A stretch of DNA of 64,000 nucleotides from a virus. The stretch spans positions 46,777 to 110,776 of the IMG/VR virus record IMGVR_UViG_3300033143_005193. One strand, given 5' to 3'. The notes below the pieces were generated by a model. The model made no database searches. It was given only the letters and a program-made list of their open reading frames with translations, and was not told the DNA's origin. The position numbers and the translations under genes are program-made. Positions 2,910 through 56,697 of the stretch are shown here, one piece after another. Numbering within the stretch: the first letter of the stretch is position 1; every line of letters begins with the position of its first letter.

Positions 2910-3056
2910 ATATGTCATCTTATAGTTTTATTAGTTATAGAGAACTGCCAAGAAAACCCCGTTCGCTTGCGGCGGGGATGAATTGGCATAATATTTTTAA
3001 AAAATAACTTGATAAACACTGAATATAATAGTATATTATACATGTAAATAGGTGGT

Positions 3057-3209
3057 GTGGATAATGAATATAGCTCAAAGGAACGGAAAAGAGAGTTAGA
3101 GAGACTTACCAGAGTCTTCTCTATTGAGGAAGAGAATATATTAACTTATTTTGATTTAATTAGACTGGCAATTAAAGAAAAATATGGTTTGGAAGAAATA
3201 GGAAAATGA
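3057..3209 (+). pseudogene. Degenerate ribbon-helix-helix regulator within the IS
   Basis: ...KRELERLTRVFSIEEENILTYFDLIRLAIKEKYGL; N-terminal strand (MNIQINIALPKEW) survives only in the second copy at ~56445-56488. Confidence 0.5.
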
Positions 3210-3609
3210 GAGAATATAAGTCAACATCACATTGTAAATATTTATGTCAGTACCACATCATTTTCTGCCCAAAATTTCGATATTCTGTTTAAAGGGAGAT
3301 ATTGAAATCAGTTTAAAAGAAATATTGGTAGATGTGGCAAATAGATACGAATATGAAATAATCCAAATGGAAGTGATACCAGACCATATTCATATATTTG
3401 TTGGCGCTAAACCAACTGTTGCTCCGATAGATATAGTAAGGATTTTTAAAAGTATTACAGCTATTGAATTGTTTAAGAAATATCCAAAGTTGAAATCTTT
3501 TTATTGGAGATGTGGTTCTCTTTGGTCAGTGGGAAAATTCATATCAACTATTGGTAATGTTTCTGCAGAAACAATCAAAAAATATATTGCAGAGCAAAAA
3601 GGGAAGTAA
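3206..3609 (+). pseudogene. tnpA: IS200-type Y1 transposase TnpA, frameshifted at ~3290
   Basis: MREYKSTSHCKYLCQYHIIFCPKFRYSV* then other frame KGDIE...DHIHIF (HUH)...IKKYIAEQ; one T missing in GTT TTA AAG. Confidence 0.85.
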
Positions 3610-3612
3610 AAT

Positions 3613-4686
3613 ATGTTGGTGCGAAGAGGCTATAAATATAGAATAATACCAACTAAAGAACAAGAGAAATCCTTGCTTCAACATGGCGGTAATACCAGAT
3701 TCTTATGGAATTATGCTCTTAAAACAAACCAAGATTATTATAAAGAAACTGGTAAATTTAAGTTTTATTATGAATTAGCTGCTTCATTACCAAAGCTTAA
3801 GGAAGAGTATCCCTTCCTTAAGAAATCATTCTCACAGTCTTTACAAATGGTTTTAAGACAATTTGATAAGGCATTGAAAGATTTTTTTAAAAAAGAGAAA
3901 GGATTCCCAACTTTTAAAAAGAAAATGTTGTTAAATGATAGCTTTACTTGCCCTCAAAAATGGCGATTGGGAAAAGGCTTTATTTTTATACCTAAGATAG
4001 GAGAAGTAAAATGGATAAAGCATAGGGCTATGAAAGGCAATCCTAAATCAATAACCATCTCACAGGATGGCAATAAATGGTATTGTTCTGTTTTATGTGA
4101 ATATGAAATAATTGAAAAAGAAAAAGGTTTTACTGATATTGTAGGTTGCGATGTTGGGTTAAAAGAATTTGCCACACTATCTAATGGAACTATTATAAGC
4201 AATCCCAAACATATAAAAAAATATGAAAAGAAGTTGGTAAAAGAACAAAGAAAACTAAGCAAGAAGAAAAAAGGAAGTAAAAACAGATTTAAACAAAGGC
4301 TTAAAGTTAGGAAGATTCAAAACAAAATAAGAAATGTTCGTAGAGATTTTCTACATAAAACATCTAATTCGATAGCCAAGAATTACGATGGAATATGTTT
4401 AGAAGATTTGAATATTAAAGGAATGATGAAAAACCACTATCTCGCTAAGTCAATCAGTGATGTTTCGTGGTCGGAATTTAATAGACAACTTGAATACAAA
4501 TGTAAGTGGAATTTTAAACATTATATTAAAATTGGAAGATTTGAACCAACAAGTAAAAAATGTTCAAATTGCGGATGTATTCAAGAAATGCCTTTGAGTA
4601 AAAGAATATTTAATTGTCCTGATTGTGGAGTGTCAATTGACAGGGATTTAAATGCATCTATAAATATCAAAAATATAGGATTTTAG
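3613..4686 (+). CDS. tnpB: RNA-guided endonuclease TnpB
   Basis: N-terminal YKYRIIPTKEQ, RuvC-I GCDVG, RuvC-II LEDL, Zn finger CSNC/CPDC, RuvC-III DRDLNAS. Confidence 0.95.
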   Translation: MLVRRGYKYRIIPTKEQEKSLLQHGGNTRFLWNYALKTNQDYYKETGKFKFYYELAASLPKLKEEYPFLKKSFSQSLQMVLRQFDKALKDFFKKEKGFPTFKKKMLLNDSFTCPQKWRLGKGFIFIPKIGEVKWIKHRAMKGNPKSITISQDGNKWYCSVLCEYEIIEKEKGFTDIVGCDVGLKEFATLSNGTIISNPKHIKKYEKKLVKEQRKLSKKKKGSKNRFKQRLKVRKIQNKIRNVRRDFLHKTSNSIAKNYDGICLEDLNIKGMMKNHYLAKSISDVSWSEFNRQLEYKCKWNFKHYIKIGRFEPTSKKCSNCGCIQEMPLSKRIFNCPDCGVSIDRDLNASINIKNIGF

Positions 4687-4817
4687 TAAACTAAGCAGAA
4701 GCCACGGGGCTTGCCCTGTGGAGTGTCACGGAATGATTTTCTATGCAATAAATATTTTTCAACAAAACAAGAAGAAAAAAATAAATCATTGATTATTGAG
4801 GAAATTGATTTAACTAT

Positions 4818-25975: not shown

Positions 25976-28618
25976 TTATTTTTTCCATGTTATTATAGGA
26001 ATCACAACATTATTTAATTTCTTTAAATCAATATTCTTTAGATTTTTTAATTTATCAATAACATAGCACCCTTCATCTTCTATTGTTCTTGTTGGCTTAA
26101 ATCCAAGATTTTTTAGTTTATCAACAACTGGATTGTAATAAAAATTATCGGTAGATTCGCTTCTTGGTGATTCTATATGAATTTTTTCGGCTTTTATACC
26201 AAATTTATTAGCTATATAAATTACTTTATCAGCTAATTCATTCATAGATAATGGTTCATCTAATTGATTCCATGTTCTATATTCACCATTATTTGGATAA
26301 TTTTCTATGGCCAGCATTAGACATTGAACAGAGTCATTTAATGATAAAAATCCTCTACTATGCTCACCTTTTCCAAAAATAGTTAAAGGATGACCTATAA
26401 CAGCTTGAACAATAAATCTATTGAAAACAGTACCAAAACATTCATCAGAATCAAATCTTGTATTCAATCCAGTTTCTTCTATTTCTGGTGTCCATGCACC
26501 ATAAACTACACCCTGCATTATATCAGTAGCTCTTATATCATAAAATCTACAAGCACAATCAATATAATAAGTAGAAGCAACTTTACTGTTACCACACCAT
26601 ACAGATTTACCATTTCTTCTAACATAAATTATATTATTCGGAACTTCTACACAATAAATTTTTCCATTATATTTAATTTTATTCCAAGAATTATCTTCTT
26701 TATTATTAATTTGTGTTGTTTTATTATCAGAAATATAAACACAATATTCATTTTCTTGTTCATCAATTTTATGAAGATAAGCGGAATATCCAAGTTTTAA
26801 ACAAATTTCATGAAAATCATTAGCAAGTTGAATAGATTTTGTATAATAAGCTCCTCTTAATTTTTTTGATTTATCATCTATCCAACCATCACCTTTCATC
26901 ATTGTATTAAATAAGATTTTTAATAATGGTTTTGAAAGATTTTTTATCCATTTAGGAATATATTTTTCATCACTTAATTTGAATTTTTTTAAATATTCTG
27001 ATAATTGTTTGTATCTTATAGAGAATATATTTACTCCATTAAAATCTTTATTTATTTGAATTTTTCTATTAAAAATTGATAATGAATTTTTAATTTCTTC
27101 GAAATATTGTTCTTTTTTTTGTGATATATTTATTGAATTTTTATATAAATTTCCTTCGGTTATATACCATCCAAAAAATAATAACCAATCTTCCATTGGA
27201 ATATATTTTTCTTTTTCTAATTTAAATACATCTTTTGTTAAAGTTACCATACATTCTGGTAAAACAAAATATTCAAAATCATCCCCATTCCAATTATCAA
27301 CATTTGTTTTAAGACAGATATCTTTTCCATATACATCCTTCGCTTCTGTAAGTCGCCAATTTTTTAAATCACTTCTATGAGAAGAATGTTCTAATAATTT
27401 ATGATTATCTGTTACAAGTAAATCAATATTTTTATTTTTTAATGAAATAAGATCACCATCAAAATCATATTCAAAATGATTAATTGGTAATTGATACTCT
27501 AATTCATTTTTTTCTTTATTTAAAGTAGCTACCTTTTCTTTTTTGTTCAAATTTTTAAACAACTTCCATCCATTTTCCGTAAGAATCTCTGTATCATCTG
27601 AATAACATGCATGGTAATACGAACCAGGTTTTCTTGGATAAATTGCGTTTTTTATTAATTTACCATCATATTCAAAATCAAAAACACCTTCTGGTATTCT
27701 TATTCCAACACTAGGATCATATTCACCCATACTATTACCAGACCAATAATTTTTTCCATTTCTTCTAACCATTATTATACCAGTAGGAACAGTACAACAA
27801 TACACATAATCATTATATTCTATTTTTGATATATGATCTTTTTTTACAAAAGCATCATTGTTTTTTGTCATATCATCAGTATTTTTTGGAATATAAAATG
27901 ATTGTTTATGAATCATTTTATCAGCTCTTTCTATTTTTATATCACCGTCTTCATCTTTATATACAACTCTATGATTAGGTGTCAAAAGACAATCAACTTT
28001 TTTATTTTTTATTGATATCATTTCACCATTATATTTGTATTTTTGTATTTCAGATGGATTATGATATTCTATTTTCATTTTATTTTTATCTAAACACATT
28101 ACTTTATCATTTTTAGATAATTCTTCAAAACGTTTCCATCCATCTTCTGTTAAAATTTCTGTTTCTTTATCGTAACATCCAATTGTTACTAAACTAGTAT
28201 CTGGTGAATATTCTTTTATGGCATGAAGAATGTTAAGTGTACCTAGAATGTTATTATAAGTAGTTTCATATGCTAATTCTCTATTTTTATGTGAAAATGG
28301 AGCAGCTGGTTGTTGGGCTAGATTAACAACAACATCTGGTTTATATTCTTCAAAAATTCTTTGTAATTGATAATAATCATCAATACCATCAATTCCCATT
28401 TTATAGAATATGAAATCACCATATTCTTTCATTATTTTTAATCGTTTGTTTGGTTCTTCTATTGGTAAAGCAGAAAAAGATTCCATGTAATGTTCTACAT
28501 AGAATCTTCTTCTAAAATCATCTATACAAATAACTTTATATCCTTTTTTTAATAATCTTAAAGTTAATGCATGTCCTATATAACCATCACTACCACAAAC
28601 CAAAACAGTTTTACTCAT
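25976..28618 (-). CDS. sqdB: UDP-sulfoquinovose synthase (SqdB/Agl3-like) with two inteins; ~392 aa after splicing
   Basis: GSDGYIG, AQQPAAPFS, G|SMGEY, PGSYYHA|SK, ATDIMQGVVYG, RFD-DE-FGTV-NRF--QA. Confidence 0.85.
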   Translation of the reverse strand: MSKTVLVCGSDGYIGHALTLRLLKKGYKVICIDDFRRRFYVEHYMESFSALPIEEPNKRLKIMKEYGDFIFYKMGIDGIDDYYQLQRIFEEYKPDVVVNLAQQPAAPFSHKNRELAYETTYNNILGTLNILHAIKEYSPDTSLVTIGCYDKETEILTEDGWKRFEELSKNDKVMCLDKNKMKIEYHNPSEIQKYKYNGEMISIKNKKVDCLLTPNHRVVYKDEDGDIKIERADKMIHKQSFYIPKNTDDMTKNNDAFVKKDHISKIEYNDYVYCCTVPTGIIMVRRNGKNYWSGNSMGEYDPSVGIRIPEGVFDFEYDGKLIKNAIYPRKPGSYYHACYSDDTEILTENGWKLFKNLNKKEKVATLNKEKNELEYQLPINHFEYDFDGDLISLKNKNIDLLVTDNHKLLEHSSHRSDLKNWRLTEAKDVYGKDICLKTNVDNWNGDDFEYFVLPECMVTLTKDVFKLEKEKYIPMEDWLLFFGWYITEGNLYKNSINISQKKEQYFEEIKNSLSIFNRKIQINKDFNGVNIFSIRYKQLSEYLKKFKLSDEKYIPKWIKNLSKPLLKILFNTMMKGDGWIDDKSKKLRGAYYTKSIQLANDFHEICLKLGYSAYLHKIDEQENEYCVYISDNKTTQINNKEDNSWNKIKYNGKIYCVEVPNNIIYVRRNGKSVWCGNSKVASTYYIDCACRFYDIRATDIMQGVVYGAWTPEIEETGLNTRFDSDECFGTVFNRFIVQAVIGHPLTIFGKGEHSRGFLSLNDSVQCLMLAIENYPNNGEYRTWNQLDEPLSMNELADKVIYIANKFGIKAEKIHIESPRSESTDNFYYNPVVDKLKNLGFKPTRTIEDEGCYVIDKLKNLKNIDLKKLNNVVIPIITWKK
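26588..27607 (-). mobile_element. Intein with LAGLIDADG endonuclease in SqdB (340 aa)
   Basis: CYSDDTEILT...GWYITEG...MMKGDG...VRRNGKSVWCGN|S. Confidence 0.9.
27734..28177 (-). mobile_element. Mini-intein in SqdB (148 aa)
   Basis: CYDKETEILT...TPNH...VRRNGKNYWSGN|S. Confidence 0.9.
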
Positions 28619-56019: not shown

Positions 56020-56256
56020 TTATTTAAAGTAAATATTATTTTTTTCTTTAATTAATTTTACTAAAACATCACCGTGACAAGGTTTTGGCTTACACCAACA
56101 ACCAAGAGTCTTGCCTTCTAATTCCATAAGACGCTCCATTAAATAAGGGTTATTTCTTATATAGTTTTCGTATTGTTCAATAACTTCTTCTCTGTTACCA
56201 TCAATACCAATTTTAAATGGATTCCCCCATATTGATGGGTGTCCTATATAAACATC
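56020..56256 (-). pseudogene. DUF4326 gene, native N-terminus replaced by IS remnant
   Basis: DVYIGHPSIWGNPF...LGCWCKPKPCHGDVL directly after the IS right end. Confidence 0.75.
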
Positions 56257-56517
56257 GTGACACTCCACAGGACAAGCCCCGTGGCTTCTGCTTAGTTTAC
56301 TAAACATTCTTTTTCTTGCTTCAACGACAGTTTCAACAAACCATCTCCACAAGCGTGAATTCCGCTGTGCCCCAGCGTACTTAATCAAGGCATTTCTTGA
56401 ATACATCCGCAATAGAGAAGACTCTGGCAAGTCTCTCTAACTCTCATTTCCATTCCTTTGGTAAAGCTATATTTATTTGAATATTCATTATCTACACCCC
56501 CTATTTACATGTATAAC
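56257..56517 (-). mobile_element. Non-autonomous remnant of the IS at 2939-4729 retaining omegaRNA scaffold and right end
   Basis: Similarity to ~3036-3127, 4568-4594 and 4682-4729, plus ~80 nt (AAGTACGCTGGGGCACAGCGGAATTCACGCTTGTGGAG...) absent from copy 1. Confidence 0.85.
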
Positions 56518-56535
56518 TTTCTTTTGATATATTAA

Positions 56536-56697
56536 CTACTTTAGTTGGAAATTTTCTTTTCTTCTTTTCCTCTTTTTTAATTTTCTCGTTCTCCTTATTT
56601 TTTCTGGATCTCTTTCTTTAAACTTTTTTCTACTACCAATTTTTTCGAAATTATAATTATCATCAATTTCTTGATAATAATTTTCGTAATAATTCAT
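56536..56697 (-). CDS. Small basic protein
   Basis: MNYYENYYQEIDDNYNFEKI...KKRKRRK. Confidence 0.5.
   Translation of the reverse strand: MNYYENYYQEIDDNYNFEKIGSRKKFKERDPEKIRRTRKLKKRKRRKENFQLK

Follow-up and report, generated by a model that had tools for sequence, protein, structure and literature searches.

Two sister copies of an IS200/IS605-type element, which lie 52 kb apart in the genome of a large tailed phage, retain complementary parts of a TnpB system. The copy at locus 1 has an open tnpB and lacks a complete omegaRNA. The copy at locus 2, a short remnant that we will call the stump, has a complete omegaRNA scaffold and lacks nearly all of tnpB. This reciprocal anatomy had been pointed out in an initial annotation of the DNA, and comparison with related elements bore it out. 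In our reading, the complementarity came about as a side effect of recent decay and was not maintained by selection. The explanation that we favor, with modest confidence, is independent recent decay of two sister copies, parts of which possibly still form a trans-acting TnpB complex.

The DNA that we analyzed (the window) is the final 64 kb of a 110,776-nt IMG/VR virus record with a CheckV completeness of 46%. The 110-kb record contains one tnpB and two right ends of the element. Because 46% of the genome is in hand, “only tnpB” and “only omegaRNA” are statements about these 110 kb. For comparison, we used relatives of the element from IMG/VR (7), from genome-bin contigs (5), and from metagenomes (80 loci). 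A distant blastn comparison to a phage collection gave only weak similarity for tnpB. In a search of sequencing runs, the best run contained 22% of the sampled words, all of them from the conserved part of the omegaRNA, and RNA runs contained 4%. The features of the two loci are listed in Table 1.

Table 1. Features of the two element copies and their surroundings (positions are those of the window).
Feature	Position	Strand	Remarks
TAM GTTAT at left end of full copy	2934-2938	+	homology to relatives begins here
Full IS200/IS605-type copy (locus 1)	2939-4729	+	1791 nt, left to right end; from alignment to relatives L003-L011; several lesions
Left-end subterminal hairpin	2957-2977	+	conserved and covarying among relatives; absent from the stump
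Promoter-like site TTGATA-17-TATATT	3009-3037	+	consensus match only, 10/12; equivalent TTGACA box kept in relatives
RHH-like gene remnant	3057-3209	+	N-terminal strand lost via 10-nt and 4-nt deletions
tnpA, Y1 HUH transposase	3206-3609	+	Pfam Y1_Tnp, E = 2e-27; frameshifted
tnpB	3613-4686	+	open frame, 357 aa; catalytic core intact; C-terminal 26 aa gone
79-nt deletion junction	4681-4682	+	1-2 nt of microhomology
Residual right end	4682-4729	+	3' part of helix 5, helix 6 (TnpA hairpin), 3' half of pseudoknot
DUF4326 gene, 3' part	56020-56256	-	Pfam DUF4326, E = 7e-27; interrupted by the stump
Predicted 16-nt guide GATGTTTATATAGGAC	56241-56256	-	directly after the right end; first bases of the interrupted DUF4326 coding sequence
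Sister-copy remnant (stump, locus 2)	56257-56512	-	256 nt; three microhomology deletions (TTATA, ATTG, GA)
Complete omegaRNA module	56257-56386	-	130 nt; scaffold 56377-56257 (121 nt), ending at the right end
tnpB island, zinc-finger region	56387-56409	-	23 nt between two deletion junctions
RHH-like gene 5' segment	56410-56512	-	103 nt, carries a stop; homologous to 3040-3134 of the full copy
TAM GTTAT at original insertion junction of stump	56513-56517	-	retained

In full, the element has a left end, a promoter-like site, an RHH-like gene, tnpA, tnpB, and a right end whose last bases are GTCAC. Several features place it among the IS200/IS605 elements. There is a Y1 HUH gene, whose HUH motif and C-terminal tyrosine could be aligned even though a 1-nt deletion breaks tnpA (one T is lost at 3288-3290, which reads TTT instead of the TTTT of relatives). 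The full copy has subterminal hairpins at both ends, the motif on the 5' side is fixed, and there is no target duplication. The flanks of the right end all differ among the insertions of the element. The RHH-like gene is a third small gene of this phage-borne IS605-type family and lies between the left-end promoter and tnpA, with its stop overlapping the tnpA start (ATGA; see L005:334-495 and L003:2432-2593). Relatives have an ORF of 53-54 amino acids at this position, with a match to Pfam RHH_1 that is just below the cut-off (E = 7e-4). The gene is broken in both of the window's copies.

The full copy seems to split a tiny ORF, which would read MSSYSFISY before the insertion and GMIFYAINIF... 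after it (flanks 2912-2938 and 4730-4792, + strand). In L124, a syntenic relative, the element is absent from locus 1 and a different stretch of 269 nt is found instead.

The TnpB from locus 1 matches three Pfam domains (HTH_OrfB_IS605, OrfB_IS605, and Cas12f1-like_TNB). As the initial annotation had claimed, it keeps the RuvC triad and the zinc finger: when aligned to relatives and to the structures of ISDra2 TnpB (phmmer E = 1.5e-55 to the sequences of 8H1J and 8BF8), D180, E264, D345, and the four cysteines of the CxxC...CxxC motif are in place. The protein is cut short by a 79-nt deletion, which starts just past the codons for ...NIKNIG; the stop follows one codon later. This C-terminus corresponds to about residue 373 of ISDra2 TnpB.

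At the deletion, the full copy reads from ...ATATAGGAT directly into TTTAGTAAAC, so the tnpB does run straight into the right end, as had been noted. All of the relatives with a complete 3' end (seven of seven from IMG/VR, three from genome bins, and about 45 from metagenomes) have ~79 additional bases there. On alignment, the deletion is unique among the more than 50 relatives that were compared. Besides the 79-nt deletion, the full copy has deletions of 10 nt, 4 nt, and 1 nt (in the T run), for four lesions. In TnpB elements, the omegaRNA overlaps the 3' end of tnpB and extends into the right end. Every relative with a complete 3' end has such a cis omegaRNA; at the window's tnpB it is deleted, and the cognate scaffold is found in the record only in the stump (56257-56386). 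The deletion takes helices 1, 3, and 4 of the scaffold along with the 5' halves of helix 5 and of the pseudoknot (see below), so the cis omegaRNA of locus 1 is predicted to be dead. Consistent with this, an nhmmer profile of the scaffold matches at positions 2-130 in the relatives with a complete 3' end and only at positions 83-130 in the full copy.

The stump carries the 79-nt segment, and its right end is that of the full copy apart from 1 mismatch in 48 nt; both the segment and the shared right end had been noted before, as had the ATTG junction, which we confirmed in the sequence. The location of this copy also stood, with a correction to its extent: the last five bases of the originally annotated 56257-56517 are the TAM and not part of the element. 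Missing from the stump are the outer ~100 nt of the left end (with the hairpin and the promoter), tnpA, and most of tnpB, including 84 nt of its 3' end. The proposed loss of the left-end hairpin was supported by the relatives, which place the hairpin outside of what the stump retains. The two copies share derived bases (for example, TTATACATG instead of the relatives' TTGTATATG), and are therefore sisters. They differ at ~4% of roughly 160 shared nucleotides. Every lesion in either copy is an indel at 1-5 nt of microhomology.

Could these deletions be artefacts of assembly? A metagenome contig that holds two copies of one repeat is a natural place for such errors, and the single-T loss in tnpA is in a homopolymer run. 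However, the junctions share just 1-5 nt, which is far below the k-mers of assemblers, so spanning reads must exist. Also, the copies differ at several positions (the ~4% mentioned above), so they are not a collapsed repeat, and an independent contig (from run X1, discussed below) confirms the outer boundaries of the stump locus. We consider it extremely unlikely that one or both deletions arose during assembly.

The initial annotation described both copies as immobile. This holds for the stump, whose left end is gone. The full copy has kept both ends, and if TnpA were supplied in trans, it could be moved. We also considered whether the stump might be a mobile MITE or PATE with a left end of its own (TTAT/ACATG). 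This was rejected, as the left end in relatives is ~100 nt further out. Membership among the PATEs requires two hairpin ends, and the left-end hairpin is absent from the stump. What the stump does have are the features of a stand-alone omegaRNA: a complete conserved scaffold with an adjoining guide, and a compatible effector, in that one tnpB of the same family is present in the 110-kb record.

To describe the omegaRNA of this family, we aligned 36 distinct sequences. The resulting model has five nested helices and a pseudoknot, which joins the loop of helix 1 with a run of four bases (-6 to -3 relative to the guide). In this alignment, 99.2% of the cells form standard pairs, and compensatory changes occur in 16 pairs. 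Across 500 shuffles, the values of the real alignment were never reached on any measure, and if the partners are slid by 1-3 columns, then pairing falls to 34-50%. The scaffold comprises the last 121-123 nt before the right end. We looked for convincing covariation in the 84 nt upstream of the scaffold and found none. RNAalifold had suggested a long-range pairing between the 3' tail and the region that is deleted in the stump; this was rejected because its pairs are broken. In the pseudoknot that replaced it, between the helix-1 loop and the 3' tail, 100% of the cells are paired. Relatives share 90-93% identity with the window in the scaffold and 83-88% in TnpB.

The stump's omegaRNA fits this model throughout. 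It matches the nhmmer profile at positions 2-130 (score 138.9), and its row of the alignment pairs in all six helices, including the pseudoknot; substitutions in its stems keep the pairing. A minimum free energy fold of the single sequence reproduces the helices (z = -2.0). In a search against Rfam 15, neither locus was matched by any family, and the window yielded only tRNAs and one tmRNA.

In TnpB systems, the guide is the DNA directly past the right end (PMC8612924, PMC10097598). For the stump, as had been proposed, this flanking DNA gives a 16-nt guide directly after the right end. The TAM that had been predicted (TTAT) is also supported: GTTAT is found at 24 of 30 distinct left ends, or at 28 of 30 if a register shift of one base is allowed.

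The gene in which the stump lies belongs to the DUF4326 family. If the stump is excised in silico, then the flanks join as ...KVVNISKESY followed directly by DVYIGHPSIWGNPF, like the uninterrupted homologues; by alignment, the joined flanks are a normal DUF4326 N-terminus as in other phages. We found two relatives with an empty site. In a 7-kb contig from run X1, which stems from a near-identical relative, position 56518 is joined to 56256, which skips exactly 261 nt, and ATTGT replaces GTTAT. In L114, which is a syntenic phage at ~80% identity, the DUF4326 site is empty and has GTTGT in place of the TAM; the L114 record (55.8 kb) contains no tnpB. A search of IMG/VR for the X1-type empty-site junction gave no match. 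The mismatches between the X1 contig and the window are unevenly placed: 0 in the 133 nt upstream (56518-56650), 2 in the 5 nt of the TAM, and 4 in the 107 nt downstream (56150-56256).

The window's TTAT (a Tyr codon) corresponds to TTGT (a Cys codon) in both of the relatives with an empty site (see L114:2528-2536). This difference could be due to TAM escape, to co-conversion, or to chance. Escape from the TAM is a weakened explanation, as TTGT is also found in the relative at 80% identity and may simply be ancestral.

The DUF4326 reading frame has some other unusual aspects. In both the window (56513-56600, - strand) and L114 (2440-2540), the frame lacks an ATG, GTG, or TTG near the conserved N-terminus and overlaps the stop of a small, lysine-rich ORF upstream, which may indicate a frameshift fusion or an unusual start. 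Also, an open frame (56020-56430, - strand) runs from inside the stump across the right end into DUF4326 and has an in-frame ATG near 56306-56308. DUF4326 might therefore still be produced, with a new N-terminus on the protein.

How could the stump be transcribed? A scan for promoters before the stump found that candidate sites were no more common than expected by chance. The window's 22 tRNA genes and its tmRNA are all on the - strand, at ~55.9-63.4 kb, which is also the strand of the stump. Transcription of the stump would be accounted for most simply by read-through within the tRNA/DUF4326 unit.

To ask if tnpB is still under selection, we compared pairwise and three-taxon distances and counted private substitutions. 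The window's TnpB has 5 private non-synonymous changes, which is no excess over relatives from intact elements. The pairwise omega is ~0.07-0.09 for tnpB; for tnpA, in spite of its frameshift, it is ~0.05. With a broken gene that looks as constrained as tnpB, the substitution patterns cannot separate selection from recent decay, and the dN/dS check suggested in the initial annotation does not decide the matter. The low omega of tnpA means that the lesions must be recent. Constraint on tnpB is equally explained if the 79-nt deletion was the latest event and TnpB was useful until then.

Some aspects of the two loci sit awkwardly with random decay. The breakpoint of the stump's deletion at the 3' end of tnpB and that of the 79-nt deletion are ~4 nt apart, exactly at the border between what is essential in the protein and in the RNA (the module border as defined for ISDra2), which is a striking coincidence if the deletions were random. 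All four indels in the full copy miss the 1068-nt core of tnpB (p ~0.03 if random), a hint that this gene was constrained until recently. And the stump has kept exactly the guide module, that is, the TAM, the full scaffold, the pseudoknot, the right end, and the guide. These coincidences fit a selected split as well, though they were noticed post hoc.

The selected split would be a working selfish homing unit that is maintained by selection at the level of the element. The omegaRNA from the stump, loaded onto TnpB made at the other locus, would cut uninterrupted DUF4326 alleles and force their conversion. Loss of the cis omegaRNA may even raise the output of TnpB, because TnpB otherwise cuts its own mRNA to obtain the guide; that TnpB processes its own mRNA into omegaRNA is described in PMC10278001. 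There are possible targets: TTAT plus the first 14 bases of the guide are found in seven other IMG/VR phages, in DUF4326 genes that are uninterrupted, owing to conservation of the YDVYIG motif. However, the two closest relatives with an empty site carry TTGT rather than TTAT, and no cleavable allele is documented in the clade. Furthermore, the arrangement is found in a single genome: we searched IMG/VR for the junction of the 79-nt deletion and for the junction in the stump, and neither occurred elsewhere. Intact-looking frames are expected here without selection, given the result for tnpA, and the stump lacks an above-chance promoter. We think that a split unit of this kind is unlikely, though less so than domestication by the phage.

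Another point in favor of a split unit is that omegaRNA modules without tnpB recur, beside complete elements, in several relatives (L031:431-555, L042:685-813, L060/L075, and L076). But the omegaRNA itself served as the query that found these modules, and their recurrence is therefore subject to ascertainment bias.

Some arrangements in the relatives are also of note. In L042 (640-860), an omegaRNA without tnpB and its right end lie directly behind GTTAT, and the GTCAC of this right end abuts the left end of a complete copy, an arrangement that recalls the RE-LE joint of an excised circle, or else a tandem dimer. L060 (2697-2974) and L075 (2050-2317) each have a PATE-like mini-element 40 bases past a complete element. 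The mini-element comprises TTAT, a left-end hairpin, a TTGACT promoter box, the last ~30 nt of tnpB, and the omegaRNA, within whose scaffold the contigs stop. L004 (2560-2640 and 4197-4260) has a 5'-truncated copy, which lacks the left end, the RHH-like gene, and the start of tnpA. It is flanked by a direct repeat of ~50 bp of the neighboring DNA, which could be a trace of imprecise recombinational repair.

The initial annotation had also raised the possibility that the pair is a domesticated RNA-guided nuclease. Put to use by the phage as a weapon or a regulator, the pair would act on the YDVYIG-coding motif in the DUF4326 genes of competing AT-rich phages, or else on the phage's own DUF4326. 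It is true that the guide covers a conserved motif with an identical reading in several unrelated phages, that the stump can no longer be moved by TnpA, and that the stump shares the strand of the tRNA/tmRNA array, which is probably well transcribed. But the guide is simply the flank of an insertion, as in any TnpB element, and neither transposon end has been lost from the full copy. TnpB also retains its catalytic residues, in contrast to the TldR repressors (PMC10705468). The look at related phages that the initial annotation had asked for speaks against domestication too: X1 and L114 lack the insertion in DUF4326, and L124 lacks the one at locus 1, so neither insertion is conserved. And within the genome of the phage itself, the guide has a single near match (28573-28592), which lacks a TAM and has a mismatch in the seed. 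Overall, domestication is very unlikely, and that claim of the initial annotation is not sustained.

In its most specific form, domestication would amount to a two-locus, CRISPR-like weapon, with a nuclease that has been freed from its own guide and a fixed guide RNA gene in the tRNA operon. We give this very little credence. Similarly improbable is the mode of action that goes with it, in which a guide to the YDVYIG-coding motif would lead to the cutting of TTAT-bearing DUF4326 alleles of co-infecting rivals.

The near match at 28573-28592 is in an SDR gene, and we rejected it as a target, since it reflects a chance resemblance at a GxDGYIGH Rossmann motif. The gene itself (25976-28618, - strand) encodes an SDR/epimerase-like protein of 880 amino acids with GSDGYIGH near its N-terminus. 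By eye, it appears to have two intein-like inserts, each of which starts with Cys and ends with ...GNS.

Returning to independent decay, we propose the following course of events. Two sister copies of an IS200/IS605-type element with an RHH-like gene, tnpA, tnpB, and omegaRNA would have inserted next to GTTAT in this phage's lineage, and later both copies would have decayed independently through small deletions at microhomologies. Copy 1 appears to sit in a short ORF or a spacer; its 79-nt deletion would have killed its own guide RNA and spared the core of TnpB. Copy 2, in the DUF4326 gene, was apparently cut to 256 nt and would by happenstance have kept the scaffold, right end, TAM, and guide. 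Nothing in the evidence supports selection for the split, and nothing supports domestication.

Even so, the remaining parts might work together. TnpB (residues 1-357) would be made from the element's own promoter. The omegaRNA would be cut from a minus-strand transcript through the tRNA array and the DUF4326 gene and then be bound by TnpB. The complex would cut DNA with TTAT and the 16-nt guide sequence, which corresponds to the insertion-free allele of DUF4326. In a mixed infection, such cutting would favor the retention or copying of the stump. This would be the ordinary selfish homing role of a TnpB, but with the guide provided in trans.

Several studies bear on whether this could occur. 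Stand-alone omegaRNAs have been shown to work in trans (Altae-Tran et al. 2021, as summarized in PMC10691335). For ISDra2, a TnpB without residues 376-408 is still active and cuts DNA, although it is slightly less stable; an omegaRNA without -231 to -117 is also active, so a scaffold of 116 nt suffices; and a pseudoknot joins -5..-3 to -103..-105 (PMC10097598). The natural truncation of the phage's TnpB ends ~2 residues short of the ISDra2 delta-CTD construct, and the natural trimming of its RNA from the 5' side leaves 121 nt, as compared to 116 nt. Because trans-acting omegaRNAs have been published and both the tail of ISDra2 TnpB and the 5' region of its omegaRNA are dispensable, use of the stump's omegaRNA by TnpB in trans would be plausible, and we hold to this tentatively.

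More broadly, the phage system resembles ISDra2 (Karvelis 2021; Nakagawa 2023) in its set of domains, the D-E-D triad, the zinc finger, and a 5-mer TAM by the left end. Also as in ISDra2, the omegaRNA overlaps the 3' end of tnpB, about 120 nt of scaffold are required, and a pseudoknot links the 5' region to the tail. The systems differ in the TAM (GTTAT instead of TTGAT) and in the extra RHH-like gene of the phage element. The truncations of ISDra2 were engineered, separately and on one locus, whereas those in the phage are natural.

The stump can be compared to two kinds of protein-free omegaRNAs. Like the stand-alone omegaRNAs of OMEGA systems, it is a scaffold without an effector gene that shares a genome with a compatible effector. 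However, the OMEGA examples are described as evidently mobilized copies that add guides to effectors that keep their own. In contrast, the stump is immobile. The one tnpB in the record is without its own guide, and any activity would have to come entirely through the orphan. The omegaRNAs on PATEs have also been proposed to rely on TnpB in trans (Meers et al., PMC10055086). Like a PATE, the stump is a protein-free derivative of an IS200/IS605 element that keeps an omegaRNA and a right end, and the same element family does include a PATE-like element with a left end, a promoter, and an omegaRNA (L060/L075). But a PATE has two ends and can be moved by TnpA; the stump, lacking the left-end hairpin, is not a PATE.

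Two other systems are similar in part. In phage T4, trans homing has been described for a defunct homing endonuclease (mobE / I-TevIII, PMC2790892). There too, a disabled mobile insert in a phage is kept moving by a nuclease that is encoded elsewhere in the genome. In T4, recognition is via the protein; here, it would be via RNA from the insert. TldRs are nuclease-dead, TnpB-like repressors that have lost their catalytic residues (Wiegand et al., PMC10705468). TldRs are, like the pair considered here, TnpB derivatives apart from the transposon role that have a guide RNA with a fixed target. Unlike the phage pair, with its intact nuclease site and its arrangement that is not conserved, TldRs are conserved beside their target genes across taxa.

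That an orphan omegaRNA can arise from the decay of an IS605-type element is a known kind of process. What is new here, on the face of the sequence, is that the single tnpB found in the 110-kb record has lost its own guide. As it stands, this phage provides a tidy example of IS605-type decay that leaves an orphan omegaRNA. The analysis also establishes, with good support, the omegaRNA structure and the TAM of a phage-borne TnpB family with an extra RHH-like gene. The natural separation of the protein and RNA modules falls at the border that structural work on ISDra2 had established with engineered truncations. If the pair works, then it would be a natural TnpB that is wholly dependent on a guide RNA encoded elsewhere in the genome. 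This bears on how effectors and guides came to have genes of their own on the route to Cas12, as well as on the persistence of element remnants in phages through homing. And if the weapon reading were true, then the phage would hold a natural intermediate between TnpB, whose guide is inside the gene, and Cas12, whose guide is encoded apart.
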